In this document: piece after piece, positions 1-53,400 of the stretch
Numbering within the stretch: the stretch's first letter is position 1
How the letters are laid out: every line of letters starts with the position of its first letter
Origin: an uncultured Candidatus Saccharibacteria bacterium
GTDB lineage: Bacteria; Patescibacteriota; WWE3; CAZQFB01
DNA: 64,000 nucleotides
Reading direction: 5' to 3'
Assembly (NCBI GenBank): GCA_964592525.1
Contig: CAZQFB010000001.1
Coordinates: 147,454 to 211,453, forward strand
Notes under the pieces: generated by a model
The model's input: the letters and a program-made list of their open reading frames with translations, nothing else
Databases searched by the model: none
What the model was told of the DNA's origin: nothing
Made by a program: the position numbers and the translations under genes

Positions 1-714
1 TTATCTGATCAGACAGTTCAGACAGATTTATACGCTAGATATTATGGTGGTTATGGCGGAATTGGAATTTGGGTAAAAGATTACAGAAACTGGATTTTTG
101 TTAGAATCTATCCTGCAACCGGTCAACTATGGATTCATGAAGCATATGAGGGATTTGATAAGGGCGGTATACTCACATTTTACCCATTAAATGCTGCTTC
201 AAATACCTGGCATGAGATGAAAGTGGAAGCAAATAGCACAACAGGAGTGATAGATGTTTATGTTAATGGAGAATTCATCACGACCTACACAGCCACAACA
301 CCTAACCGTTCGGGATGGACAGGATATTTTAGTGGAAATTGTGGCGGATTCTATGACAACTTTTCGTTAACATGGCCAGATCCAGTACCCTCGCCCGCAG
401 AAAAAGAATTAGCTGTTAAGCTTGCTCCTACTACTTTACCCACCGCCAAAATCGGGCAACCTTACCGGGCAGAGCTCGTAGCCAAAGCTATCTCTCCCGA
501 TCTTGGCAAGCTCACTATGACGATTACAGGGTTGCCTAGAGGATTGAAAGTATATAAGTGTTCTAATACTTCAAAAGCAGTTTCATGCAACTTAGGCGGG
601 TCGGTCCTTGGGACAACACAGCTAGGAATTCATCAGGTTACGGTCAAGGTGAGCAACGATTCAGGCGCTTCAAGGTTCTTTACCACGCCTATTGAAGTGG
701 TAAAAGGTAAGTAA
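1..714 (+). CDS. C-terminal part of a secreted/cell-surface protein with putative Ig-like domain; 5' end upstream of window
   Basis: Frame 1 open from nt 1 to stop at 712-714 with no in-frame stop upstream in window; motif LPTAKIGQPYRAELVA resembles putative-Ig-domain consensus; beta-rich S/T/G composition. Confidence 0.55.
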   Translation, partial: LSDQTVQTDLYARYYGGYGGIGIWVKDYRNWIFVRIYPATGQLWIHEAYEGFDKGGILTFYPLNAASNTWHEMKVEANSTTGVIDVYVNGEFITTYTATTPNRSGWTGYFSGNCGGFYDNFSLTWPDPVPSPAEKELAVKLAPTTLPTAKIGQPYRAELVAKAISPDLGKLTMTITGLPRGLKVYKCSNTSKAVSCNLGGSVLGTTQLGIHQVTVKVSNDSGASRFFTTPIEVVKGK

Positions 715-751
715 TTAAAAATTGGTAAAAAAAGCAATAGGGTTCTATACC

Positions 752-1176
752 TTGCTGTAGTTAGTAGAAGCGGTTTTTGCAACGAGTTAAGCACAAAAGT
801 AAATTCCATTTTTTCTGTTTTTAGGTGGTGGAGTATTTTAAAAGTGTGCGCAACCACGATAAAGGGATTTAAAAACCGTTGCCTTAAGCAGGATAAACCT
901 CAAAGAGCCTCCTATAATTGACTAATAATCTAATATATTAATTTATTAATTGTTTATGTGCCATGTATATATGTATATATTTTTTAAAATCACGTGACCT
1001 TAATAATCACTATTTAATTTATTAGGAAAGGTGGTAGGTGGAGGGGTGGTTGGGCGCCATGAATCACGTTAGGTTTATGACTTCGCCCTTTAGAGTTAAG
1101 TCAGGAAACTTAAGTGCATCTTGCCAGTAAGAAAAAAGACCGCCCTTGTAAGGACGGTCCTTTGTTGCAGTCTTCC
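752..1176 (+). repeat. Copy A of ~400 bp direct repeat unit ending in palindromic hairpin; no long ORF
   Basis: Near-identical to 2782-3205 (ggtttttgcaacgagttaagcacaaaagtaaa...ggtggtggagtattttaaaag...ggtggtaggtggaggggtggttggg...cttgccagtaagaaaaaagaccgcccttg); AT-rich internal segment of differing length between copies. Confidence 0.8.
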
Positions 1177-1181
1177 TGATA

Positions 1182-1751
1182 TTACACTACGCAATTGTAT
1201 TCAGCTGTCAGACGCTCCCACTCCAACTCGGCTTCCTCATCCGTGAGATAGTCTTCGCGACTTGCCCGCCGGATGGGGGCCGGGAGCGGTTGATCGTCGA
1301 TCCGATAGAGGGCATACACAGGACCGTATACCCCCACCAGGTTAGATGTCCGCTCCTTGACGCACATGACAGCACCAAGCCGTCGGAGGAACTCTTTGGT
1401 GGTCTTCGACAGATCGCCATAAGCAGGGCCTGTGAAGCCCCACTTGCCCCACGGTGTCCATAGTACGCTCGGAGCACCGTAGTAGACCTCGAGGAAGAGC
1501 CCTTGCTTGGTCTGGTTGTAGAACGGATTAACGCTATCTCTCCTGCGGTCCTCAACCCAGGCGTCCTCCTCATTAGCTACAAGCTCGAAGAAAAGGTCGC
1601 CAATACGACGAACCACCGCATAGAGTTCGTCGTCGGTCATTTGGATGTCTAGGTGATCAGACACGCCCCACCTCCCATTGATTGTATAACGGATCGGTCT
1701 TCGCCTTCTCCAAAGTGCTAGTATAACTAGCACAGCGAAGTTACTAACCAC
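1182..1751 (-). CDS. hypothetical protein, compositionally GC-rich (foreign-looking), N-terminal hydrophobic segment
   Basis: 189 aa ORF (GTG start in ORF track); region roughly 57% GC versus ~42% flanks; sits between the two direct repeats next to the TA pair; sigma70-like promoter with AACCTATAGT spacer at 1892-1920 on minus strand. Confidence 0.5.
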   Translation of the reverse strand: MVSNFAVLVILALWRRRRPIRYTINGRWGVSDHLDIQMTDDELYAVVRRIGDLFFELVANEEDAWVEDRRRDSVNPFYNQTKQGLFLEVYYGAPSVLWTPWGKWGFTGPAYGDLSKTTKEFLRRLGAVMCVKERTSNLVGVYGPVYALYRIDDQPLPAPIRRASREDYLTDEEAELEWERLTAEYNCVV

Positions 1752-2008
1752 TTGAATGGAGTAAAAATAGCTAGTAACTTCGCCTGGAGAAAGCGATGTA
1801 ACAACTTAAATATCAAAGTTATCAAGGTGCAACAAGAGAACCTTGACGTAAGTAAGCTGTAATAGCGTACCGTTGCCAAAATTCATGAGCAAACATACTA
1901 TAATACTATAGGTTTGTCAAATAAGTTTATATAAAGCTAAGCTGGCTTTCATATCTTTCGCTATTGAGAGTGAAACTTTACGAGCAGGTAAAAGGGTTTT
2001 AAGAAAAA

Positions 2009-2040
2009 AGGACCGTCCTTGTAAGGACGGTCCTTTGTTG
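2009..2040. repeat. Perfect copy of recurring palindromic hairpin element (AGGACCGTCC-TTGTAA-GGACGGTCCT) flanked by A-run and T-rich tail
   Basis: 10 bp perfect stem, 6 nt loop; related degenerate copies at 1131-1166, 2757-2790 and half-copy 3187-3200; lies between divergent promoters so not acting as a simple terminator. Confidence 0.7.
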
Positions 2041-2147
2041 TAGTTAGTTAAAACGCACTGTCTTCGTCGTAAACCTTCTTCTCTTTTAATTGAGGTCAGT
2101 GACATGGGGTTGGTTCTTTTTACCCGGTTACATTTTCCGCTCAATCA

Positions 2148-2175
2148 TTGACTAAATATACCAGAGTAATATAAT
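2148..2175 (+). promoter_or_regulatory. sigma70-like promoter (TTGACT-16-TATAAT) for TA operon; ATG 9 nt downstream of -10 (leaderless-type)
   Basis: ttgact at 2148-2153, tataat at 2170-2175; short inverted repeat taatt-gcat-aatta over the start region could be an operator. Confidence 0.5.
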
Positions 2176-2184
2176 TGCATAATT

Positions 2185-2481
2185 ATGAGGACAACACTTC
2201 AAGTACCATTAACCAAATCCTTAAAAACCTCTTCCGAGAAGGTGGCTATTAAATATGGTTTTTCTTCGCTTCAGGAGGCTGTTCGGTTGTTTTTAACCCA
2301 GCTTTCTAAAGAACAAATTACCATTGGCTTTAATCCTGTGCAGACTGATATTTATTTAACTAAAGAACAGGAAAACACTCTTAATAAGAGATACGCGGAA
2401 GCGAAAAAGGAAACTAAAAATAGCAAAGCGCCCCCCGTAACTAGTGCTAAAGAAATGATGCATCAGCTGCGCATGGGATGA
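2185..2481 (+). CDS. type II antitoxin, RelB/DinJ family
   Basis: 98 aa; segment LQEAVRLFLTQLSKEQITIGF matches DinJ core (ISDLVRITLTKVAREKALPF); overlaps toxin gene by 4 nt (ATGA). Confidence 0.6.
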   Translation: MRTTLQVPLTKSLKTSSEKVAIKYGFSSLQEAVRLFLTQLSKEQITIGFNPVQTDIYLTKEQENTLNKRYAEAKKETKNSKAPPVTSAKEMMHQLRMG

Positions 2482-2747
2482 AGTTAATTATCTCCAGAAG
2501 ATTTAAGAAGAGTTACACCACCAGGATAAAGCCCTATCCAAAACTAGATAAAATATTTGCAGAGAGAATCACCCTATTCTTAACTAATCCACAAGACCCT
2601 CGTTTAAGAGATCATAAACTAATCGGTAAAAAACAATCATTCAGAGCCTTCTCAATCACAGGGGACGTTAGAGTAATTTATTCCCAAGAATCCAAAGACA
2701 CCATACTTCTGCTTGATATAGGCACACATAACCAGGTTTATGCGTAA
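2478..2747 (+). CDS. type II toxin, RelE/YafQ/ParE superfamily mRNA interferase
   Basis: 89 aa; PRLRDHKLIGKKQSFRAFSITGDVRVIYSQESKDTILLLDIGTHNQVY matches RelE/YafQ plasmid-stabilisation motif (LxGxxxxxRExRIxxDxRIIY...IGxHxxxY). Confidence 0.7.
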   Translation: MKLIISRRFKKSYTTRIKPYPKLDKIFAERITLFLTNPQDPRLRDHKLIGKKQSFRAFSITGDVRVIYSQESKDTILLLDIGTHNQVYA

Positions 2748-2781
2748 GCTAAAAAAAGACCGCCCTTGTAAGGACCGACCT

Positions 2782-3205
2782 TTGCTTTAGTTAGTTAAAA
2801 AGGTTTTTGCAACGAGTTAAGCACAAAAGTAAAACCCATTTTTCTGTTTAAGGTGGTGGAGTATTTTAAAAGCGTGCGTAACCACGATAAAGGAATTTAA
2901 AAACCGTTGCCCTAATAAGTAAAAAACTAAAGGGCCTCATATAATTAACGAACAAACTAATATATTAATATATTATTATATTAATTTAATAATATATTTA
3001 ATCATTGATTAATATATTTTTTATCTTCAACTATTTTTTAAAAACACTTGATCTAATAATAACTATTTAATTTATCTAGAAATGGTGGTAGGTGGGGGGG
3101 GGTGGTTGGGAGCCATGAAACACATTGGGTTTATGATTTCACCCTTTAGAGTGAAGGCAGGCACTTACGTGTATCTTGCCAGTAAGAAAAAGGACCGTCC
3201 TTGGT
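2782..3205 (+). repeat. Copy B of ~400 bp direct repeat unit (terminal hairpin truncated)
   Basis: Aligns with 752-1148; preceded by degenerate hairpin copy 2757-2790 and tagttagttaaaa spacer also seen after hairpin at 2041. Confidence 0.8.
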
Positions 3206-3447
3206 TGCATAAGGTATTGCATAGGTAAAGCACTTTATTGGTCTTTTGTTCAACCAGTCTTCAATCTCCAGGCAGACCGCTAGTAATGTTACTAATTAGT
3301 TTAATCTCGTTTGAATAAGCATTAACAGTAATACTATTCCGTAATTGGGTGTTTTGATGAAGATTTTATAAGAAAAATTACTTGGGGAAAATCTTTACTC
3401 AATGCTTAACAAGTTAAACACATCGATTGCATAAGAGCTTTGTGGGC

Positions 3448-3476
3448 TTGACAACCCACATACTATGGGTTATAAT
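3448..3476 (+). promoter_or_regulatory. Perfect consensus sigma70 promoter TTGACA-17-TATAAT
   Basis: ttgaca 3448-3453, 17 nt spacer, tataat 3471-3476; overlaps the ATG at 3465 listed in ORF track, so true CDS start is downstream. Confidence 0.7.
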
Positions 3477-3527
3477 CATCTCGTGCTAACGATTCTCACT
3501 AGCGTTGGCAATCCACGGGAGGGGAAG

Positions 3528-3836
3528 ATGTACCCTATACTGCCGATTGGTCCTTCTGTTGCTGAACTGCATGAGCTTGTGGGTTTGGTGGGAGCGCTTG
3601 TTTTGGGCTTAATTGGTCTTTTGAATGTCTCTTATGATTTGAATGAGTACCATCTTAGCCCCTACCGCGACCATTGGCGGAAGGTGCTGCAGCGGGATTA
3701 CATGATATTGGGTTTGGCAGTTTGTAGCTTGGTGGCAGGGTTGTACTTTTGGGCTCCGGTGCTTTTGGTGGTTGTTATCAGAATCGTCTTCGTCAGGCTG
3801 GTTGAGGGGTTGATGATCGTTCTGGGCAAGGACTAG
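3528..3836 (+). CDS. small integral membrane protein (hypothetical), 102 aa
   Basis: Start moved to ATG at 3528 preceded by GGGAGGGGAAG RBS, because ATG at 3465 lies inside the promoter; three hydrophobic helices. Confidence 0.5.
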   Translation: MYPILPIGPSVAELHELVGLVGALVLGLIGLLNVSYDLNEYHLSPYRDHWRKVLQRDYMILGLAVCSLVAGLYFWAPVLLVVVIRIVFVRLVEGLMIVLGKD

Positions 3837-3843
3837 ATGTGGT

Positions 3844-3884
3844 CTGCCGTAAGGTGAACTTCACCTTACGGCAGTTGTTTTTTT
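3844..3884 (+). terminator. Rho-independent terminator
   Basis: 15 bp stem ctgccgtaaggtgaa/ttcaccttacggcag with 2 nt loop followed by TTGTTTTTTT. Confidence 0.85.
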
Positions 3885-3957
3885 AAAATTTGTTTTTGGC
3901 AAGCGCCACCCTTTCGTTTTGTATTCTTATTGCTCCACTTTCGCTAGAATAAGGTTG

Positions 3958-4182
3958 ATGAAGGTTACTATTCGGGTTCACCCCAACGCAAAAGAGGTAA
4001 AAGTAGAAAAAGATTTGTTGGGTAGGTTACATGTTTATGTAATAGAACCCGCTTACGAAAACCGCGCTAATCATGCTGTGTTAAAGGCGCTAGCCAAATA
4101 TTACGGTTCGGCTAAAAGTCAGGTTACTATTATCTCCGGAGGTAATTCCCGAAACAAGATCATTGAGATAAAGACAAGTTAG
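3958..4182 (+). CDS. yggU: DUF167/YggU family protein
   Basis: MKVTIRVHPNAKEVKV...LHVYVIEPAYENRANHAVLKALAKYY...VTIISGGNSRNKIIEI matches the YggU/UPF0235 pattern; start taken at internal ATG 3958 (track ORF starts 3919). Confidence 0.6.
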   Translation: MKVTIRVHPNAKEVKVEKDLLGRLHVYVIEPAYENRANHAVLKALAKYYGSAKSQVTIISGGNSRNKIIEIKTS

Positions 4183-4331
4183 ATATCATTTAGTGAGGAG
4201 AAAAAAGCTTATCTTAAGCTTCAATCTTGGAAAACAGATAACCGCCAATGAGCCTTTTTGAGGTGAAGTGCTATTTGGTGAGGGGTATATTTATATTGGG
4301 GTGTTTTTAATCCCCACATCCAAATCAATAA

Positions 4332-4355
4332 GGGCGATTGGCAAGCCAATCGCCC
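4332..4355 (-). terminator. probable Rho-independent terminator for minus-strand rmuC operon
   Basis: perfect 10 bp stem gggcgattgg/ccaatcgccc, 4 nt loop, about 14 nt after stop of ORF 4370..4669, followed on minus strand by TTATTGATTT. Confidence 0.5.
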
Positions 4356-4369
4356 TCACTGGGCTGGTC

Positions 4370-4669
4370 TCATCTCCTCCACAACCAATACCATTTACGA
4401 CCTTGTCTTTGTTCAGCGCGCAGCCTTTTGGCTTCTGCCTTTGCCTCTTTTTTCTGTTCAGCCTGTTCTCTTTCAAGCCTTCTTTTCTTCTCCATCTCGA
4501 AACTTTTATTGCGCGCATGCTCTTCTCTTTCGTAAGGTGTGGCTGCCCGCAGGTGGCTCTCATCCTGGTCGCAAATCAGGTAGATATTAAATATATCTTC
4601 TACATATCTGACTTTGCCATCACAGCGCGGGCACTTCTGACCTACTCGATAGCCAAAATCGTAGTACAT
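4370..4669 (-). CDS. small zinc-ribbon protein (CPRC...C...C) with K/E-rich coiled-coil tail
   Basis: 99 aa; CxxC motif, charged repeat tail; terminator hairpin directly downstream; preferred over overlapping low-complexity plus-strand ORF 4268..4756. Confidence 0.45.
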   Translation of the reverse strand: MYYDFGYRVGQKCPRCDGKVRYVEDIFNIYLICDQDESHLRAATPYEREEHARNKSFEMEKKRRLEREQAEQKKEAKAEAKRLRAEQRQGRKWYWLWRR

Positions 4670-4777
4670 GCGCTTGGTCTCCTTGGGCGTTTGGATGGTG
4701 GCAATTATACTACTATTTTACTTAAACCGCAGCACACTATAAGACTTAACTATTAGGGTAATTGGCGAAATTAAATT

Positions 4778-5932
4778 TTAGTCTAGAGGTAACTTAGGAG
4801 GTTCTTCTGCGAGCATAGGTAAAGACTCTGGCTCCTCTAGTTTGATTTTATCAAAGGTTCTAGTTAAGACCTTGGTTCTGGTAGTATCCACCTTTTCATA
4901 TTGTTCCGTTAATGCTTTTATGCGTCCGCCGATTTTAATAAATTCTTCGCTGTATTTCTCAAATTCTTTCTCAAATTCTCTGATTAAAGCAACAATCTTA
5001 TGCACATTATTCTGAATTCTAAAGTTGGCGTATGATTGTCTGATTAATCGCAATGTAGCCGAGAAACTAAAGGGACCTACGAAAACCACTTTCTTATTCA
5101 TCGCCTCGGTCCAGACGGCGTTCATTTTTTCGTAGATAAAAGAGAAAATCATCTCGTTAGGGATAAACAAGACCACAAAATCAACGGTATTTTCTTCTGG
5201 GCAAATGTAGTTTCTTGTGGTTACCTGCTTAACCTTTTCTTTAATGTCCTGCTCAAAATTTTTCAGGTACGTTTTTTTCATAGCTACGTCTTCGGTTTCA
5301 ATGTATTTTTGCAGATTGGCATAAGGGAACTTGGCATCTACGTTGATCTTGACGCCATCGGGGAGTAAGACCGTAAAATCTGGTCGGTTAAGTGAACCGT
5401 CCTGGGCTTGGTTGTAATAATAATCAACTCCTTTCACAAACCCAGCCATTTTCAAAAGATCCTCCGCCACCTGCTCACCAAATTGACCGCGGAGTTGGTT
5501 GTTGGACAGTACCTTTTTCAGGTTATCGGTGGTGACGGTTAGCTGTTCGGAAAGGCGACGTTGGTTTTCTAGCTCGGTTTTAAGTTCGCTAAAAGAACCG
5601 ATGCGTGCTTTTTCTGCTCCCTCTAAGCGTTCTGCATTTTTTTTGAGGTCGTCTTTAATATTTTTGATCAACTCTTCAATAGCGGTTTTATTACTATTAA
5701 CATTGGTATCAATCACTTGCTTTTTGGCATCAAATTTTTGATCGGCCATCGTGATCAGCTGATCAGTGGCATTCTTTAAAGCTTGGGGAAAAATCTCATT
5801 TATCTTTTGCTCAAAGATATGCTGAACACTGTCTCCAACCGAGCCAAACAACCTATTCTTGAAGATAAAAATAAGTAGACTGGCGAGCACTGACCCAGCT
5901 AGTAGACCGAGCATAAAATAAATATTGTTCAT
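4778..5932 (-). CDS. rmuC: DNA recombination protein RmuC
   Basis: N-terminal TM helix, long coiled coil, C-terminal RmuC nuclease-like domain (PDFTVLLPDGVKINVDAKFPY...); start set to ATG at 5932 (M48 of track ORF, which begins with TTG at 6073). Confidence 0.75.
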   Translation of the reverse strand: MNNIYFMLGLLAGSVLASLLIFIFKNRLFGSVGDSVQHIFEQKINEIFPQALKNATDQLITMADQKFDAKKQVIDTNVNSNKTAIEELIKNIKDDLKKNAERLEGAEKARIGSFSELKTELENQRRLSEQLTVTTDNLKKVLSNNQLRGQFGEQVAEDLLKMAGFVKGVDYYYNQAQDGSLNRPDFTVLLPDGVKINVDAKFPYANLQKYIETEDVAMKKTYLKNFEQDIKEKVKQVTTRNYICPEENTVDFVVLFIPNEMIFSFIYEKMNAVWTEAMNKKVVFVGPFSFSATLRLIRQSYANFRIQNNVHKIVALIREFEKEFEKYSEEFIKIGGRIKALTEQYEKVDTTRTKVLTRTFDKIKLEEPESLPMLAEEPPKLPLD

Positions 5933-6185
5933 CTTGGTAGGTATTGTACCTCTTGGCGTTGCCGGTTGATACCCTGAAAAGAATGACTTGCTGGCTTTAG
6001 AAACCCCAGTGTGGTTGCTTAGCAGCAAGTAAACATTGTGTCTTAATGGGGAAGCATTAATTAATTTAGGCAAAAGGCACTAAGAATTTTTAAGCGCCAA
6101 AATTATACGCTTGGTTAACTCACTTGGTGTAAATGTGCCGTAGCATTACGTTTCTTATTAGTTGTAGGATAGTTTTAAGTGAGAG

Positions 6186-8947: not shown

Positions 8948-10192
8948 CTAGTGTCGGTAGGAAATGGGCAGATAACTTGCGTAGCGGTTGGGGGGAGGGG
9001 TGTTGGTAGTAGGTAGGCAGTACTGGCTGGCGGGTTGACGCAAGTAGGCTGGCACTTCTGGGTCTTCGTAAATCTCAAAGGTCAGTAGTTGGTTCCACGC
9101 CATATTCCATGGGTTATAGAAGAGCCGGCCGCGCCAGCCTACAACTTCCAAGAACACTTCAACATCCAAGTCATGCCCCCAGTAAAGAAAGGAGCCATCT
9201 GCTTGGCTAACATCTCTCATTACTTCCACGCCATCTGCTAGTCGGACAAATACAACTTGCACTCCGCAGACTCCTCCACCGTTGTACCGATGGAAAACAT
9301 ACCCGAATTTAAGTTCGGGAGTACCGGTAGGGCTGGGAGTGAGGCTGGGGCTGTGGGTAGGGGCGCTGGTGTTACTAGGGGTAGTGGTAGTGCTGGGGCT
9401 AGCCGTCCAGGTCGGGGTACTGGTCAAGCTTGGTGTTGGGGTAGCAGAGGGTGTCACTGAACTGGTCACGCTGGCAGTGCTAGTAGGGGTCAGGGTGACG
9501 GTGACACTGGGCGTAGTGGTAGCGCTGGGGCTAGCCGTCCAGGTCGGGGTACTGGTCAGACTCGGTGTTACGGTAGCAGAGGGTGTCAGTGAACTGGTCA
9601 CGCTGGCGGTGCTAGTAGGGGTCAGGGTGACGGCGACACTGGGCGTAGTGCTAGCGCTAGGGCTAGCCGTCCAGGTCGGGGTACTGGTCAGACTCGGTGT
9701 TAGGGTAGCGGAGGGTGTCAGTGAACTAGTCACACTAGGAGTGCTGGTAGATGAGGGGCTGGCGCTAGGGGTGTTGGTTGGAAGTAGGGGTTCCTCTTCA
9801 CAAAGCAGCAACACTTGATCCTGGAAGCAAGTTTCCCGCACAATGGGAAGATGAGCTCGACAATAACTGGGAGCTACGACCCATAAAGCGGCTAATTGAC
9901 CTTCTACCACCGGTGGACCGTCGAACTTAAACGCACCTCTGTCCGAAGTCCAGGTGGTGGTAACGTAATTAGCGCCACCACTCGGGGGAAAGAGGTTAAA
10001 CTCAATCCCAAACAGGGCGACTTGGGTATGACTCAAGGGAAACAAGGGACAGGTGGGGCACCAAGTGCCATACACAGTACCCGTGACACAGCCTTCTACT
10101 TGGTTGGGCGTGGCTCTGGCCGTTGGCAAACACACGAAACCCATCACCAGTAGCACTGTCACAACTGTGGTTACCTGTAACCAGCGGTTCAT
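8948..10192 (-). CDS. secreted Ser/Thr/Pro-rich repeat surface protein with C-terminal beta-sandwich-like domain
   Basis: Signal peptide from ATG 10192 (AGGAAG RBS); three 44-aa tandem repeats (SLTPSATxTPSLTSTPTWTASPS...); GC-rich; track ORF extends to 10225. Confidence 0.65.
   Translation of the reverse strand: MNRWLQVTTVVTVLLVMGFVCLPTARATPNQVEGCVTGTVYGTWCPTCPLFPLSHTQVALFGIEFNLFPPSGGANYVTTTWTSDRGAFKFDGPPVVEGQLAALWVVAPSYCRAHLPIVRETCFQDQVLLLCEEEPLLPTNTPSASPSSTSTPSVTSSLTPSATLTPSLTSTPTWTASPSASTTPSVAVTLTPTSTASVTSSLTPSATVTPSLTSTPTWTASPSATTTPSVTVTLTPTSTASVTSSVTPSATPTPSLTSTPTWTASPSTTTTPSNTSAPTHSPSLTPSPTGTPELKFGYVFHRYNGGGVCGVQVVFVRLADGVEVMRDVSQADGSFLYWGHDLDVEVFLEVVGWRGRLFYNPWNMAWNQLLTFEIYEDPEVPAYLRQPASQYCLPTTNTPPPNRYASYLPISYRH
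9395..9790. repeat. 3 x 132 bp in-frame tandem repeat inside CDS 8948..10192
   Basis: ggggctagccgtccaggtcggggtactggtca... recurs at 9395, 9527 and about 9659. Confidence 0.85.
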
Positions 10193-10320
10193 GACAACTC
10201 TTCCTTTCGGGTTGTTAAGGTTCAATATTCGTACTCCGATTATGCTTATAACCGGGCGCTGTAGTACGAAGACACGCCATTATACCACAAGACTATAAGT
10301 TATTATGGGGCTGGTATAAT

Positions 10321-28775: not shown

Positions 28776-29678
28776 GTGTTAGGAGCAGTGTGTCGTCCTC
28801 AATTGATAGTTGAGGCCATCGCCTTGAAGTCGGTGGAATTCTACGACGCACTTGAAAAGGAGCAGAAGGTGACAAAGTCAGTGGTAGTAACGGAGGATCT
28901 AAGGAGAGCCTTTGCTCAGCTAAACGAGGTGCAAAAGAGGCTTCTCAATGGAGCGCTAAGACCACTTGATGTCCGAGATCCCCTGCAAGCAATCATCGAG
29001 GGTAGGATGATTGTGCTCGATCGCTTTGCTCTCTTTAGTGAGCTTCTGCTGAGCCCGGCTGATCAGCTGGAGCGTCTCCGAGCATATGACGAGAAATACT
29101 GGGGAGGTGCAATCTGCGAGGAGCTAAAGGGTTTTCAGTTACCCGATGTAGGTCTTCACCCGCAAAGGGTGAAGGATTTGCGGGTTCTTCATGTGGAATT
29201 TGGCTCTCCGGGAGAGACCCTGGAGAGGTGGTGGCAGGTGATCTCAGCTACCCAGCCCGGGTCTTGGCGATCGGGAGATCTCCAGAGTGATTCTGCTCAT
29301 CTGGGTCTCCACAGCCAGGCACGCCACTACCCTCCAGGAATCCATGTGGTTCGCCTAGACCTGGCGGCCCATTGGGAGCCGGAAGCGGGGAGAACCCTGG
29401 TGGATGTATACGCTAGGGTTAGGGAAGCTGGGGAGAAGCTTGCCCATGGTGAGATTCTCTCGGCCTGTGGGCTCCATCCTGATCTGGTAAGGGAGATGGA
29501 TGGAGAGAATCTGCCTTTCGTGGATCTGGCAGGGTATCAGGTATTAATGCCTGGTTTACCGACCTGTCGGGCTGTTCCGTGTCTTTACTGGGATAGCCTC
29601 AGAGGCAAGGTCGCCCTCGACGTCGACTCCATTGACTATTTCCTTCCCTCTTGGGCGGCTCCGGTGCTCAGGGAGTAA
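28776..29678 (+). CDS. DGR target (variable) protein; no recognised domain, GC-rich, VR encodes last ~43 aa
   Basis: 300 aa, GTG start; roughly 57% GC; 3' 127 nt form the VR; no obvious signal peptide or TM. Confidence 0.7.
   Translation: MLGAVCRPQLIVEAIALKSVEFYDALEKEQKVTKSVVVTEDLRRAFAQLNEVQKRLLNGALRPLDVRDPLQAIIEGRMIVLDRFALFSELLLSPADQLERLRAYDEKYWGGAICEELKGFQLPDVGLHPQRVKDLRVLHVEFGSPGETLERWWQVISATQPGSWRSGDLQSDSAHLGLHSQARHYPPGIHVVRLDLAAHWEPEAGRTLVDVYARVREAGEKLAHGEILSACGLHPDLVREMDGENLPFVDLAGYQVLMPGLPTCRAVPCLYWDSLRGKVALDVDSIDYFLPSWAAPVLRE
29548..29674 (+). repeat. DGR variable repeat (VR)
   Basis: 127 nt aligned to 30140-30266 with 18 mismatches, every one at a position that is A in the downstream copy; 3' 27 nt (ttgggcggctccggtgctcaggga) identical and GC-rich (IMH-like). 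Confidence 0.85.
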
Positions 29679-30139
29679 GTACTCCTACTTAGGGTCTTAG
29701 GGCTTTTGGTGATAAGTCCTTGGACCTTTGTTTGAGAGAAAGAGAAGGGGTGTCTTCTGAAATCTGCTTGCAGATTATGGAGGCACCCCTCTTTGTTTTA
29801 TCAATAGGCGAAATTATATATTTTGTTTCCCCTCGGCAGGTAATAAAATCTACGCTCTACGGTACATCGAGGATATGGGTGGTTTGTATAAATCATATTG
29901 AGATATAATTCCCTTCGGATGGTAGGTTAATGAACCCTGATTTAAGGATTGGGGAACACCGAGATCTCTCTTTTCGCAACAACTAGCGGAATCAAATTTA
30001 AGACATTAATTTTGAGTGTCTAGAGCGAATAACGAGCACTCCTTGCTGTCTACTGGGGATGGTCAATAGGTCCCGAATGAGATTCAGGAGTTGGATGCGT
30101 CTGGCTCCAGTGGTGTAGAAGGTAGATAGCATATACCGG

Positions 30140-30266
30140 TGCCTGGTTTACCGACCTGTCGGGCTGTTCCGTATCTTAACTGGAATAGAATCAAAAGCAA
30201 GGTCAACCTCAACGTCAACTCAATTGACAATTTCAATCACAATTGGGCGGCTCCGGTGCTCAGGGA
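30140..30266 (+). repeat. DGR template repeat (TR)
   Basis: Same orientation as VR; in the target reading frame the variable sites fall on first/second positions of AAC/AAT codons (N->Y,D,A,D,D,Y,L,S etc.). Confidence 0.85.
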
Positions 30267-30280
30267 CTGCTTGTTAATAA

Positions 30281-30311
30281 AAGAAGGACGATAAGTCCTT
30301 CTTTTGTTTGC
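30281..30311 (+). terminator. Rho-independent terminator immediately after TR
   Basis: stem aagaaggac/gtccttctt, loop gataa, followed by TTTTGTTTG. Confidence 0.6.
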
Positions 30312-30387
30312 TGTTAGTAGCAACATAATTTCAGTGCGATCGCTTAGCAGTAATGTTGTTAATGTAATGAAATAGCTGGTAGTCTCT

Positions 30388-30756
30388 TTAGCTGACCGAA
30401 CGCAACCATCCGCCTAACATCTTACCAATTGTAATAAGTTGTGCTTCCAGTTCTAGGTAATGCTTGTTTGATAAACACTGACAATCCTTACCCATGCGGA
30501 TGAGAAGTCGCAGGAGATCGAGTTCACTTGAGGCTTGTTGCAGATAAGTTTTTTTTAGCTTGCCATCTGAGGAGTTAGCTGTTCTTATTGTAAGCCTTAA
30601 TATTTCTAAAGTTTGGTTTTGGGCGGTTGCTCCCAGGGTATATCTTTGATGTTTGGGAAATTTAACTAACTGCACATGGAGATGTTTGTACAATTCATAA
30701 AGATTATGAACGATTGGTATATCGTGTGGTTTCGTAGGGTTAGATTTTGTAATCAT
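30388..30756 (-). CDS. avd: DGR accessory variability determinant (Avd)-like four-helix-bundle protein
   Basis: 122 aa; FPKHQRYTLGATAQNQ...LIRMGKDCQCLSNKHYLELEAQLITIGKMLGGWLRS resembles the four-helix-bundle/Avd family (BPP-1 Avd ...VLIAEVGRILGSWIARV). Confidence 0.75.
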   Translation of the reverse strand: MITKSNPTKPHDIPIVHNLYELYKHLHVQLVKFPKHQRYTLGATAQNQTLEILRLTIRTANSSDGKLKKTYLQQASSELDLLRLLIRMGKDCQCLSNKHYLELEAQLITIGKMLGGWLRSVS

Positions 30757-30762
30757 TAGGTG

Positions 30763-31749
30763 ATGAGTGTAGCAACTTTTTACAAAATATGCTCTCCTAA
30801 GTGGTTGTTTGAATCATGGGATACATTTAGAAAGGGAAAGAGGAAAAGACTTGAGGTGATGCTCTACGAGCGGAATTTGGAAAGGAACATCTTTTGCTTG
30901 AGTGGAAATCTTTTGTCTAAGAAATATAAGCATGGTGTCTACGAGCAATTTAAGGTCACTGATCCTAAATTGCGGAGAATAAGTAAAGCATGCGTACAGG
31001 ATCGTTTGGTTCATCAAGCTGTGGTTTCTGGTATTGAGTCCTCCTTCGAGAAGAGGTTTATTTATGACAGCTACTCCTGCAGGAGTGGCAAAGGCACTCA
31101 TGCGGCTGTTGCTAGGTTGCGAAGTTTTCTGGGGAAAGAAAGTCGGAATAATACTCGGACAACCTATGTTCTTAAATGTGACGTTAAAAGATTTTTCGAT
31201 TGCTTGGATCATGGTATTTTGATGGCTCTAATTAATAGGGTGGTTAAAGATAGTGATACCCTATGGCTGATAGAGGAAATTGTAGATAGTTTTTCTATCT
31301 TTCCTGGTAAAGGTGTTCCTCTTGGTAATCTCACAAGCCAGTTATTTGCCAATATTTATTTACATGAGCTGGATCGGTTCATAAAAAATGATTTGGGGAT
31401 TAAGTATTACGTTCGCTACTGTGACGATTTTGTAATTGTTGACAGTGATTCCAGGTATCTTCAGGGGTTGATCCCTATTCTAGAGGGTTTCTTAAGAAAT
31501 TATCTCAATCTCTGTCTGCATCCTAATAAGATTACCTTACGTACCTGGAATAGCGGGATGGATTTTCTGGGGTATATCCTAAAGCCTGATTGTACATTAC
31601 TCAGGACCAAGACAAAGAATCGTGCATTAAGACGGGTGAATAGCAATAATCTGCCTTCATATCTTGGTATTTGTTCTCACTGTGACTCGTTTGAGCTTCA
31701 ACAGATTCTCAAGTGTAAAGCTGGTAGTCTAGCACGAGAGGGGTCTTAG
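30763..31749 (+). CDS. DGR-type reverse transcriptase
   Basis: RT motifs 1-7 present: PKLRRISKACVQDRLVHQA, SYSCRSGKGTHAAV, YVLKCDVKRFFDCLDH, GVPLGNLTSQLFANIYLHELD (SQ variant of motif 4 typical of DGR RTs), YVRYCDDFVIV, LCLHPNKI, FLGY; no maturase/endonuclease domain. Confidence 0.85.
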   Translation: MSVATFYKICSPKWLFESWDTFRKGKRKRLEVMLYERNLERNIFCLSGNLLSKKYKHGVYEQFKVTDPKLRRISKACVQDRLVHQAVVSGIESSFEKRFIYDSYSCRSGKGTHAAVARLRSFLGKESRNNTRTTYVLKCDVKRFFDCLDHGILMALINRVVKDSDTLWLIEEIVDSFSIFPGKGVPLGNLTSQLFANIYLHELDRFIKNDLGIKYYVRYCDDFVIVDSDSRYLQGLIPILEGFLRNYLNLCLHPNKITLRTWNSGMDFLGYILKPDCTLLRTKTKNRALRRVNSNNLPSYLGICSHCDSFELQQILKCKAGSLAREGS

Positions 31750-50465: not shown

Positions 50466-53400
50466 GATACTTTCTAAATACCTTGCCCCAGCTAAGGCTT
50501 TGGCAACTAAGTTTGTTCATTCAAGGTGGTTTATTTTTCTCACACTTTTTTTTCTAATCCTCATTTTTTATTGGTCTTTCACAGCGGGGGTAATGTATCC
50601 AGCCCAAGATGGTGCTTTGCCAATTAGTTATTATGCCCATTTATACACCGGTTATTTAAATTATGGGGAATATTTCCTAACCAACACCTTTTCGTATACA
50701 GAAGATTTAATCACTAGCTATGTTTTTATGGGTGCTTCTCCCTTTGACCCAGTTTTGAGAGTGTGGTTCTTTATCAGTCAGTTACTTAATCTGTCCGTAT
50801 TAACCTCCTTTTGGTGGTATCTCATTATTTACATTACGTTCGGTACTATTGCCGTATATATTCTAGGGGAGACGCTTCTTTTTAAAAATAAAAGTTCTTC
50901 TTTTTATTTAGCTGTTGTTTTCTCTATGTCAGGATATTTTGTCTCCAGCACTTCTATTCCCAGCTTTATTATTCCTTTTGCTTGGCTACCAGTAATTCTT
51001 TTATTATCCTTGTCTTGTTTTAAGTACCAGCGCTTGGGAGATTATTATTTGTTGTCTTTGGGGCTATCCATACTAATTACCACCTATATTACTTTGGGAA
51101 TTGGTATTAGCCTCTATTGTTTTCTTTTTATTCTTCCCTTTTTGTTAAATTACTGGCTTAACTACAAAAATAGAAGAGCGCTACTTTTTAAAAGGCTTGT
51201 GTTTTTTGGAGGGCTTTCGCTGTTTTTTAACTCGGTGATATTCCTGGTTTATATTAGATATCTAAATGGAAGTATTCGTTGGTTGCAGGATTTAAAATGT
51301 TTCTATGTGGGTATTCCCCCTCAAATATTAAGTTCCAATCGGTTTATTGATTGGCAATGGCTGTTTAATATTTTTATGCCCAGTGATTTGTTAGCTACTT
51401 GGAATGGGTATGGAAATGGTAGTCTGTGGATCAATAGTTTTTACTATCTAGGAATAGCCTCTTTTATTTTGGCCTGTTTGGGAATTGTGGTGTTAGGTAA
51501 CAGAAAAAGGTATCGTTTGTTTGCTACAGGTTTATTGATAGCAACAATGTTCGCCTTTTTCTACGCCCAAGGACATCCCTTACCGAGAATGATTCCTTTT
51601 TTTAATACCCTCACAAAGTATCCCCATTTTTCTAGACCACTTATTATTTTTAGTGCTCTATTGCTATCCGCTTTTGGGTTTAATGAGCTTTTTGTAGCCA
51701 AGAATAAAGTGATCAAAGACTTGAAAGTATTATCGCTAAAATATTTTCCAGCGTTGCTTATTTTGGCCGCACTGTTTCTACTCCTGGTTCATTTATCCGT
51801 TGGTGCTAAATCCAAACCAGACGAAATTGTGTACTCTCTTTCTTATATCTTTATTTTGGGTATCTTATACGTGGTAGCTATGGTATCTAAGCGTAAGAAG
51901 TTATTTTTATCTTTACTGCTTTTTGATTTATTCTTTTTTCTCTCATCCAGTATTCCTCTGGTTGATTACCCACATAAGAGAACACTTGCCAGTATTACGG
52001 CCGTGTTTCTAAATAGTGATCGGTCGTTTAAGATTCCTCAGCTTCAAGAATATTCTGTAACAAAACCATTTCCTGGTATGCATTTTGGAGCTAGTGCTGT
52101 CTATAGTAGGCAAAGTCATCTTCCCTCACCCGAAACTGGTTTTATGTTGCTTAGGCGAACGGCTTTAAGTAACAAAGAGATTAATGATACTTTTATAAGT
52201 GGTAAACAGCGTTTCAACGCCTTGTCTATGCTGGGGGTTTCTAAGACAAGGTATTTTGTTGCACCTGCTGCTCTTATGGTAGATCAATACGAGGATCTTT
52301 ATCCAAAACTTAGTCTTCTTTATGAAGAATTAGACCGCGAAAAGCCTTGGCAAGGGGCGGAACCAGTTGTTGTTGTGGGTAATGACCATCCTTTGCTGGC
52401 AAAGGTGTCGGGTGAGTATGGGCTAAGCGATACAAAGGTAACAATTCATACTGATTATGAGGAATATTTATCTTCATTTTCTAGAGATAACCAGCGCACT
52501 CAAGTTACTTTAGAAAAAGAATACTTGGTGGATGTGGGTCGGGGTGTTTATAAGTTTACAGGGGAACTTCCTGTGGCGCAGGAAATTGTGACTGAAGGTA
52601 TTTCCGCTGAGCGCTTATGCCTTTTAGTTGAGGATGCTGGTGGTAATTACTATTATCCCTTAAGTGGGGATATCTTTAATTTTGATGAGTCGCCTCCAGA
52701 GGGGGAGCCCGCCAATAAAAAGTATATGGTACCTAATAATTATTTTTACGCTTCTTACTTAGAGACTGACGGAGAAGCATCTTTTTTTATCAGAAGACCA
52801 ACCAACCAACCTGGTCTGGATTTAGAAGACTTAATCTTGTTTATCAAAGATCCCTGTTATAGTCCATTTACTGGTAGTGACGACTTAAGAGAGGAAAAAG
52901 TGGTTATTCCTTCAAGTGATTTTGTTTTTGAAAAAGATTTTAAGAACACTGTACTCGCCTATTATACTGGGGTATTGACGAATACAGAGTTACCTTCTTA
53001 TTTTGGCAAAAGTTTTAATAGGGTAACAGTAACTGATTTAGAGGGAAGAAAAATTGATTGGTTTGAAGAGCATAGTAATCAGGAAGCCAGTTTTGAACTA
53101 GAAGACCAGGTTTTGAGAATCCTCTTAGATTATTACGCAAATCCGGTTATTGCGAGTCCTATTCAGGTAAATTTTAGTGTTATTGACAAAAAACCCTATC
53201 CACCGGAAATAGAAATTGTTAATGAAACGCCGGATCAAGTATTACTCAAAGTACGTTCTGAAGAACCATCAATAGTTGTTGCCCGTCGGGTGTTTGAACC
53301 TGATTGGAAAGTTTTTGTTGATGGTGAAAAAGAGAAGGTCTTTTCTGTAAATGGGTTGTATCTTGGTGTAGAAATGCCTGCGGGTGATCATGAAATCAAG

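Follow-up and report, generated by a model that had tools for sequence, protein, structure and literature searches.

The 64-kb window, which is the whole stretch of DNA that was analysed and the part of the genome visible to us, opens with the 3′ end of an ORF (1-714, plus strand) whose stop codon at 712-714, taken from the ORF list, lies 12 nt before the first of five hairpin copies (H0′). This upstream ORF encodes a putative secreted or surface protein; its Pfam hint is weak (Laminin_G_3, E 0.021, below the cutoff), and we infer the label "surface protein" from the sequence. Behind it lie a non-coding unit (unit A), a GC-rich gene on the minus strand (ORF160), a perfect hairpin (H2), a toxin-antitoxin (TA) gene pair on the plus strand and a second non-coding unit (unit B). 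GC content is uneven across these elements, with 56% in ORF160, 31-35% in the interior of the units and 41% in the window. The inner junctions were reproduced in independent Logan assemblies of SRR11845624 and SRR11845625 (L001, L002), and the arrangement is thus not an assembly artefact.

Two direct, non-coding repeats around a 1.6-kb segment had been proposed in the original prediction, and we confirm them with slightly wider limits: unit A spans 727-1169 and unit B 2751-3208, each about 450 nt long. Both have the layout hairpin, X, hairpin, where X denotes the interior of the unit between its hairpins. X_A (766-1130, plus strand) has an AT-rich middle and, at 1030-1054, a G-rich tract between its 5′ and 3′ parts, and X_B (2801-3183, plus strand; 31% GC) carries 27 extra nucleotides in the AT-rich middle. 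By BLASTN the two units are 79.4% identical over 427 columns including gaps (E 3e-98), with 64 mismatches in 392 ungapped columns (16.3%, Jukes-Cantor 0.18) and 35 indel columns, 27 of which fall in the AT-rich middle. This middle part of X is prone to slippage. Both units terminate in GTTGCA. Directly upstream of H2, the 3′ end of X occurs a third time in part (1957-2003, plus strand), with TTTCGCTATTGAGAGTGAA where X has TTTCACCCTTTAGAGTGAA; a search with an nhmmer profile of the unit matched it at 1957-2059 (E 1e-7). The differences between units A and B are spread evenly: once the AT-rich middle is set aside, mismatches occur at a uniform density of 13% (chi-square p 0.90), and the longest stretch of identical nucleotides, at 32 nt, is not out of the ordinary (permutation P 0.16). 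The substitution spectrum is unbiased, with mismatches between X_A and X_B involving all bases. The earlier argument, which took a conserved G-rich core and conserved ends as signs of an ncRNA or of a recombination site, does not stand up to these figures.

The hairpin AAAGGACCGTCCT-TGTA-AGGACGGTCCTTT is a palindrome with 13-bp arms and a 4-nt loop. Its five copies stand one at each module boundary, including the boundary between the two inner gene modules, as had been predicted, and no copy of the palindrome was found elsewhere in the 64 kb. When the 13-mer was searched with up to two mismatches, 12 matches (both strands counted) fell inside 1135-3202 and one outside, at 52381, where about 1.1 would be expected by chance. 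The copies differ in their state of preservation. H0′ (727-765, plus strand), which opens unit A, has retained the A-run and the TTGCTGTAGTTAGT tail and its stem has decayed (DNA fold z -0.66). H1 (1131-1169), which closes unit A, lies 18 nt past the stop codon of ORF160; its two plus-strand mismatches become G.U pairs on the ORF160 strand, so that the 13-bp stem is fully paired there and is followed by TTTTTTCTT (terminator scan, 1163-1134), with a fold z of -4.2 there, against -1.6 for the plus strand. H2 (2004-2053; 13-bp stem at 2007-2036), between the ORF160 and TA modules, is perfect and gives DNA fold z values of -7.0 and -6.6; its tail, TAGTTAGTTAAAA, is the sequence with which the X units begin as well. 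H3 (2751-2800), which opens unit B 3 nt past the stop codon of the toxin gene, has four plus-strand stem mismatches and fold z values of -0.95 and -0.03. H4′ (3184-3208), at the end of unit B, consists of the left arm and GTTGCA, a 15-nt deletion having taken the loop and the right arm. The arms are mosaic, in that the left-arm variant GACCGCCC is common to H1 and H3 and GGACCGTCC to H2 and H4′. All five copies have the same flanks, with the 3′ end of X to the left and TAGTTAGTTAAAA to the right, and hence go back to one sequence that was duplicated locally, not to convergence.

A stem-loop followed by a U-tract, the pattern of an intrinsic terminator, is present on both strands of H2 and on the minus strand of H1, and is missing from H0′, H3 and H4′. 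Hairpins lie 3-18 nt past the stop codons of the upstream ORF, of ORF160 and of the toxin gene. Two other terminators in the window, at 3844-3874 and 8921-8891, have stems of 13-14 bp and are each unique in sequence.

ORF160 (P0001; 1182-1664, minus strand) encodes 160 aa and starts with GTG preceded by GGGAGGTGGGG; it is an exact gene call in both NCBI and Logan. The description of this gene as a GC-rich orphan ORF on the minus strand holds as far as its reality and its composition are concerned, but it is not an orphan, since its family has 381 cluster representatives in a library of 1.84 billion proteins. The family is uncharacterised. Matches to ORF160 were found neither in Pfam, NCBIfam, PADLOC and PHROG nor, at the level of the fold, in the PDB, and its AF2 model has a pLDDT of 96. 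The region upstream of the gene (1665-1956, minus strand) contains a promoter-like site, TTGACA-17-TATGTT (1920-1892, minus strand; 10/12 consensus match), a 19-bp inverted repeat (1735-1783) and an 8-bp palindrome (1715-1733).

By profile and gene order the two plus-strand genes are a genuine type II TA pair, consisting of a RelB/DinJ-like antitoxin and a YafQ/RelE-type toxin. The antitoxin (2185-2481, plus strand; 98 aa), encoded directly upstream of the toxin, resembles RelB/DinJ weakly (TIGR02384, E 1e-4, 22.5 bits, below the cutoff of 45.65) and matched no antitoxin family in Pfam. The toxin (2478-2747, plus strand; 89 aa) is a YafQ-like member of the RelE/ParE superfamily that was recognised by Pfam, NCBIfam and PHROG (RelE-like), with scores above the cutoffs of two families (PF15738 YafQ_toxin, 41.6 bits against a cutoff of 30, 1.6e-10; TIGR02385 RelE_StbE, 43.9 bits against a cutoff of 27.9, 2.5e-11). 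The two genes overlap by 4 nt (ATGA). As in RelBE and DinJ-YafQ type II operons, the antitoxin gene comes first, the genes share the ATGA overlap, the toxin scores above the cutoffs and the pair has a promoter of its own; it differs from them in that the antitoxin matches RelB/DinJ below the cutoff. The prediction of a dinJ/yafQ-like operon is thus upheld. A single promoter-like site was found upstream of the pair (TTGACT-16-TATAAT, 2148-2175, plus strand; 11/12), in keeping with co-transcription of the two genes, and since it ends 9 nt before the antitoxin ATG and there is no Shine-Dalgarno sequence, it is reasonable to infer that the mRNA is leaderless or nearly so, as had also been proposed. 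No relatives of the pair at 90% identity or more were found in a collection of 15 billion proteins.

Copies of the unit were looked for inside and outside the window. The other 61 kb of the window yielded none, and there was no further occurrence in any of the sequence collections searched. Searching genome_contigs and metagenome_contigs for the exact 20-mer TTTTGCAACGAGTTAAGCAC, taken from the most conserved block, gave four matches, all of them bare 20-22-nt chance matches; the source genome itself was not recovered by this search, which therefore says little about close relatives. Patterns of the unit block, the hairpin and the G-rich core had zero matches in viral_contigs, and a "distant" BLASTN search of 720-3260 against plasmid and phage collections had none. 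It had further been suggested that an empty site, with the surface-protein gene followed directly by the ORF at 3528-3836, might be seen in relatives. We did not find one next to the rmuC genes of related contigs: the closest RmuC relatives are 69-80% identical and have different neighbour genes, the 102-aa product of the 3528-3836 ORF has no homologue but itself, and the relatives are distant. Neither X nor the hairpin nor any of the left-hand genes is present in 72 kb of DNA from the RmuC relatives, and the region left of about 4.3 kb has no counterpart beside RmuC in four related contigs. The lineage is sampled very poorly, and its nearest relatives are distant ones. A literature search on the SRA run and on TA islands of Patescibacteria found nothing specific. 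As far as our tools see, within the 64 kb visible and without close relatives, the unit occurs only here, as a simple local duplication with no conservation elsewhere, which is the outcome that the original prediction had named as speaking against it.

The structure is real, and nothing that we found shows more than a locally duplicated intergenic unit around an islet of accessory genes. The explanation that we favour, at about even confidence, is that a duplicated, terminator-bearing intergenic unit brackets a small accessory islet, specific to its lineage, in the chromosome of a member of the Patescibacteria (CPR). The islet would consist of two unrelated gene modules, perhaps of foreign origin, namely the GC-rich minus-strand gene and the plus-strand TA pair, each with its promoter-like site (10/12 and 11/12, respectively), and these modules would sit between two old, diverged paralogous copies of the ~450-nt intergenic unit. 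The 30-nt palindrome, flanked by an A-tract and, at its opposite end, by a T-tract, would serve as a bidirectional intrinsic terminator that ends and insulates each module. It shares with bidirectional intrinsic (Rho-independent) terminators a GC-containing 13-bp stem, a 4-nt loop, an A-tract upstream and a T-tract downstream, as well as its placement just past stop codons and between convergent genes, and its form is that of the unique terminators of the window. Unlike such terminators, here one sequence with its flanks occurs five times in 2.5 kb and three of the copies have decayed, and this repetition points to copying together with the adjacent DNA. One observation that sits uneasily with termination is that H2 has no obvious gene to terminate.

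Two routes could have led to the duplication. The intergenic unit may have been duplicated in tandem and the genes gained afterwards, or a circular DNA of about 2.03 kb carrying its own copy of the unit may have integrated by a single crossover (Campbell-type integration). After the duplication the copies would have drifted apart evenly, by ~13-16%, and the outermost hairpins and H3 would have decayed. Known islets flanked by repeats, formed by Campbell-type integration or segmental duplication, are similar in that a segment of mixed composition with an addiction module lies between direct repeats of a few hundred bp and could be lost or amplified by homologous recombination. They differ from the present locus in that the repeats here are 16% diverged, with a longest identical run of 32 nt, and in that neither a circular form nor an empty site was observed. 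The flanking repeats would permit loss or amplification of the segment here as well; given their divergence and the short identical run, recombination between them would be inefficient. Three features speak against the duplication reading. A co-oriented hairpin stands at each boundary, with the intact ones between unrelated modules, which is more orderly than random duplication predicts; the mosaic arms are not explained by a single duplication without gene conversion or parallel change; and the differences between the two copies of a 15-codon mini-ORF in X, described below, are all synonymous. If the favoured explanation is correct, the locus is an example of a streamlined CPR genome that holds an accessory islet insulated by copied terminators, which would be useful for annotation and unsurprising.

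Among the alternatives, we examined whether X is a functional RNA, either a small RNA, an element in the 3′ UTR of the gene upstream, or a leader that contains a micro-ORF of 15 codons, which would be made from the plus strand, end at the downstream hairpin and be retained in copies because the RNA acts on something. We regard this as unlikely. It is consistent with the position of a hairpin directly 3′ of X in copy A, with the degenerate state of H0′ and H3 upstream of X, which makes read-through from the upstream genes into X plausible, with the unusual G-rich tract kept in both copies of X and with the third, partial occurrence of its 3′ end just before H2. The mini-ORF (MVEYFKSVRNHDKGI; 825-872 and 2853-2900, plus strand) encodes an identical peptide in both copies, and all three differing bases (845, 851 and 866) are synonymous third positions, a weak hint, as there is no Shine-Dalgarno sequence and many frames were examined. 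Against this stands a larger body of results. A scan of 600-3500 with Rfam reported no relevant family even at E up to 10, the sub-threshold matches being chance ones that lie mostly on the hairpins, and the proposal that the unit gives rise to a discrete ncRNA gains nothing from it; in the whole window two tRNAs are the sole matches at the gathering threshold. X folds no better than its shuffles (MFE z -1.6 and -0.85), and RNAalifold on both strands of the two copies found four compensatory pairs on the plus strand and three on the minus strand, favouring neither. The copies of X have no promoter-like site in common and no strong promoter, whereas three neighbouring genes score 10-12/12. The even divergence leaves no unusually conserved block, copy B lacks its 3′ hairpin, the mini-ORF is the sole ORF conserved between the copies, the longer small ORFs being frameshifted or differing mostly non-synonymously, and homologues of X were not found in the collections searched. 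Were X a transcribed regulatory RNA, the locus would matter more, but the present evidence does not favour this. To our knowledge, sRNAs and cassette-capture systems are almost undescribed in Patescibacteria.

It is improbable, in our judgement, that the palindrome serves site-specific recombination and that mobile cassettes (X, ORF160, TA, X) are arrayed here, comparable to attC arrays, CALINs or Xer-dependent pdif modules, for which the recombinase would be encoded elsewhere. In favour of this, one site of ~45-50 nt recurs five times in the same orientation, exactly where modules begin or end and at no other place in the 64 kb, with mosaic arms and with the degenerate copies outermost, and the modules are unlike in origin, GC content and orientation, each with its own promoter. 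Integron arrays and pdif modules typically carry TA cassettes, and we counted the TA pair in favour of this reading. In chromosomal integron arrays and CALINs, such as the Vibrio VCR arrays with TA cassettes, the short modules likewise comprise a TA pair that has a promoter of its own, as well as modules that are non-coding or duplicated, and similar, co-oriented, hairpin-forming repeats likewise separate them. The locus differs from these in having no IntI, no R″/R′ core sites, a short perfect palindrome and four modules only, and the analysis brought up no integron from this phylum. Among the 55 window ORFs scanned across the 64 kb, none encodes a recombinase, integrase or transposase, be it of the IntI, Xer, serine or HUH type. 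A reading of the sequence showed no RYYYAAC/GTTRRRY cores, the right flank being GTTGCAG or GTTGTAG and the left one lacking RYYYAAC. An attC site measures 57-141 nt and is imperfect, with extrahelical bases, and a CALIN is a cluster of attC sites without an integrase; the site here is a 13-4-13 palindrome of 30 nt, perfect in H2, with A and T tracts in the form of a terminator. A dif-like site has an 11-6-11 architecture (28 bp, with 11-bp XerC and XerD arms around a 6-bp spacer). An integron array was rejected for want of an IntI-type tyrosine recombinase in the window and of attC architecture, and a pdif/dif module because the 13-4-13 site with GGACCGTCC arms does not follow the 11-6-11 plan of the dif consensus. 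The site was also not found in viral contigs, in plasmid and phage collections or in the 72 kb of related DNA. By analogy with integrons and pdif modules, the 30-nt palindrome and its ~20-nt flanks might be the crossover site of an undescribed cassette-exchange system of Patescibacteria, with a recombinase elsewhere, that assembles promoter-bearing modules (the TA pair, a gene of the ORF160 family, the X units) downstream of a surface-protein gene; this we consider very improbable. A recombination site would make the locus matter more, but the evidence at hand does not favour one.

We give a similarly low probability to a non-autonomous element of the MITE or PATE type, derived for example from an IS200/IS605-like element with subterminal hairpins, which would have landed twice nearby and left H2 as an internally deleted copy. 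The unit is ~450 nt long and non-coding, and the palindrome at both ends of each unit supplies the terminal inverted repeats of such elements; there are two copies and a "solo" junction that retains the 3′ end of X and the 5′ tail of X. However, the target-site duplication is absent, the flanks sharing nothing (TTGGT|unit|GTCTT for A and AAGCT|unit|TAAGG for B), the two copies are no more than 2 kb apart with none in the other 61 kb, the window contains no transposase, the exact 20-mer and other core patterns are absent from genome, metagenome and viral collections apart from chance matches, and the 16% divergence argues against recent transposition. The locus shows the hallmarks of neither an IS nor an integron, in agreement with the original prediction that it is not a known structure of either kind. 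X_A and X_B were also rejected as a DGR template/variable pair, as their mismatches are not confined to template adenines; the adenine pattern is present in the real DGR pair of the window, 27 kb away.

The two units that bracket the segment were delimited with a repeat finder, pairwise alignment and self-BLAST, which placed direct, non-coding copies at 727-1169 (unit A) and 2751-3208 (unit B), in accord with the original prediction but with slightly wider limits. Self-BLAST aligned them at 79.4% identity over 427 columns (E 3e-98), with 64 substitutions in 392 ungapped columns (16.3%; Jukes-Cantor 0.18); the AT-rich middle contains 27 of the 35 indel columns. Both units have a palindrome copy at the start and another at the end and share the terminal sequence GTTGCA; in unit B the terminal hairpin has lost its loop and right arm to a 15-nt deletion. 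There was no further copy of the unit or hairpin in the remaining 61 kb of the window. The inner junctions were reproduced in independent Logan assemblies, which rules out an assembly artefact as the source of the arrangement.

The palindrome, AAAGGACCGTCCT-TGTA-AGGACGGTCCTTT, is present in five copies, from left to right H0' (727-765, degenerate), H1 (1131-1169, intact on the minus strand), H2 (2004-2053, with a perfect stem at 2007-2036), H3 (2751-2800, with four mismatches in the stem) and H4' (3184-3208, left arm only). With up to two mismatches allowed, the 13-mer had 12 matches within 1135-3202 and one outside it; chance alone would give ~1.1. Because non-palindromic flanks are common to the copies, their sequences indicate that they are related by descent. 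By nhmmer (E 1e-7) the ~45 nt upstream of H2 (1957-2003) resemble the unit's 3′ end, and the 15-18 nt downstream are the unit's first bases, so that H2 looks like a junction at which the end of X (the unit interior between hairpins), a hairpin and the start of X meet.

Judged by their sequence, the hairpins have the architecture of a bidirectional terminator. H2 passes the intrinsic-terminator pattern on both strands and H1 on the minus strand, where the two plus-strand mismatches become G.U pairs and the hairpin is followed by TTTTTTCTT. Their spacing from stop codons points the same way, with H0' 12 nt past that of the upstream ORF, H1 18 nt past that of the minus-strand gene ORF160 and H3 3 nt past that of the toxin gene, as do other terminators of like build, each unique, with a 14-bp stem at 3844-3874 and a 13-bp stem at 8921-8891. 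The modular layout first proposed, with hairpin copies at the ends of the units and gene modules between them, was correct.

One of these modules is a genuine plus-strand toxin-antitoxin pair, as had been predicted: the toxin (2478-2747) scores above the curated cutoffs of YafQ_toxin and RelE_StbE, and the antitoxin (2185-2481), which resembles RelB/DinJ only below cutoff, overlaps it in ATGA. The antitoxin ATG comes 9 nt after the end of a TTGACT-16-TATAAT site, and no Shine-Dalgarno sequence precedes that codon, from which it is fair to infer a leaderless or near-leaderless mRNA. The other gene, ORF160, is indeed GC-rich and on the minus strand, and is best read as 160 aa (1182-1664) with a GTG start after GGGAGGTGGGG, in agreement with the public gene call. 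It is uncharacterised but not the orphan it had been called: a word-index homology search gave a single homologue (42% identity), whereas phmmer run in full against 1.84 billion representatives gave 381, of which 205 had E ≤ 1e-10. These define a domain of ~150 aa with the motif NPxYxQTxxGLFLExYYGxPxxLWTPWGxW, which stands alone or carries fused extensions, N- or C-terminal, with no Pfam domain of their own either. The domain had no match in Pfam, NCBIfam, PADLOC or PHROG, and the very confident AlphaFold (AF2) model (pLDDT 96, pTM 0.89) had none in the PDB by Foldseek (best E 0.2, TM 0.14). The putative ~220-nt leader of ORF160 contains two strong inverted repeats, one with 8-bp arms (1715-1733) and the other with 19-bp arms (1735-1783), which might serve as an operator or attenuator. 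Elsewhere, a 425-aa ORF without a Pfam match (8948-10225, minus strand) lies over a second GC-rich stretch, with 56% GC at 9001-10000, so GC-rich genes of unknown function are not confined to the repeat-flanked segment.

We favour, at roughly even chances, reading the region as a small accessory islet, whose gene modules would each be closed by a copy of one bidirectional terminator. On either side of it would lie one of two paralogous copies, both old, of an intergenic unit that carries the terminator. The unit might have been duplicated in tandem and the genes gained afterwards, or a ~2.03-kb circle with its own unit copy could have integrated by a single crossover. The islet reading does not comfortably accommodate the strict order of one hairpin per boundary, the mosaic arms (the left arm of H1 equals that of H3, and that of H2 equals that of H4'), a perfect H2 without an obvious gene to terminate, or a 15-codon mini-ORF, and these features keep three rivals alive.

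The foremost of these, that the unit is a functional RNA, we consider unlikely. The ends and G-rich core, being conserved while the AT-rich middle varies in length, had been taken to point to an ncRNA or a recombination site, a reading that has no positive evidence: outside 940-1000 the mismatch rate between the copies is a homogeneous 13% (chi-square p 0.90), their longest identical run (32 nt) was reached in 16% of permutations, and the substitution spectrum is unbiased. Slippage occurs readily in AT-rich low-complexity DNA, and the indel in the AT-rich middle therefore needs no selective explanation. The Rfam scan that had been proposed gave no match, not even with E relaxed to 10; minimum free energies did not differ significantly from those of shuffles (z -1.64 and -0.85), and RNAalifold on the two copies gave no strand signal, with four compensatory pairs for the plus strand and three for the minus. 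There was no promoter-like site common to both X copies, while those of three neighbouring genes match 10-12 of 12 consensus positions. The longer small ORFs in X are frameshifted between copies. The sole positive hint of function in X would be the 15-codon ORF (MVEYFKSVRNHDKGI; 825-872 and 2853-2900), whose peptide is identical in both copies and whose three nucleotide differences are all synonymous third positions; the hint is weak, since it concerns three sites, many frames were examined and there is no ribosome-binding site.

A hairpin-directed cassette system seems to us quite improbable. An attC site was rejected, as the palindrome lacks RYYYAAC / GTTRRRY cores and is 30 nt long and perfect, whereas attC sites span 57-141 nt and are imperfect, with extrahelical bases; a dif-like site was rejected because the palindrome does not match the 11-6-11 layout. 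Among 55 window ORFs scanned with Pfam, none was an integrase, transposase or resolvase, and the sole mobile-type system in the window is a diversity-generating retroelement (DGR), unrelated and 27 kb away.

We give just as little credence to a MITE/PATE-like element. The copies sought outside the islet did not appear: an exact 20-mer from the best-conserved block matched only by chance, over 20-22 nt, in 185,579 species-representative genomes and JGI metagenomes, three patterns had zero matches in IMG/VR, and BLASTN against plasmids and phages returned nothing. These negatives are weak, as the genome scan missed the source genome itself and sampling of the lineage is poor. The best named RmuC matches place the organism in Patescibacteria. 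The closest RmuC shares 80% identity, and proteins in and just downstream of the region, where in the collection, fall in 90%-identity clusters of 1-2 members, all from one genome. Synteny breaks beside RmuC (3900-6100). In four related contigs, whose RmuC is 69-76% identical to that of the window, this gene precedes one of ~100-120 aa, then genes for a class I (MetRS-like) aminoacyl-tRNA synthetase and a 5′-3′ exonuclease. In the window the genes after RmuC are a 99-aa ORF, a DUF167 (YggU-type) gene and the 102-aa ORF at 3528, and no similarity was detectable between the 99-aa ORF and the ~100-120-aa gene. A total of 72 kb of DNA from these relatives contained no X, no hairpin and no left-hand gene. 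Relative to these contigs, the leftmost ~4.3 kb of the window can be said to be lineage-specific. The 102-aa ORF (3528-3836) encodes a predicted membrane protein that matched only itself among 5.8 billion protein clusters; it has a perfect TTGACA-17-TATAAT promoter match at 3448-3476 and is followed by the 14-bp-stem terminator.

The DGR is complete (28776-31749), with a bAvd-like gene (30388-30756, minus strand), a reverse transcriptase (30760-31749, plus strand), a template repeat (30140-30266) and a candidate variable repeat (29548-29674) at the 3′ end of a 300-aa ORF without a Pfam match. The two repeats are 86% identical, with within-repeat mismatches at template adenines. Further downstream, a long low-GC (33-40%) cluster at 33695-63962 encodes glycosyltransferases, SAM-methyltransferases, sugar-modifying enzymes and large ORFs without a Pfam match, and is probably a cell-surface glycan locus.
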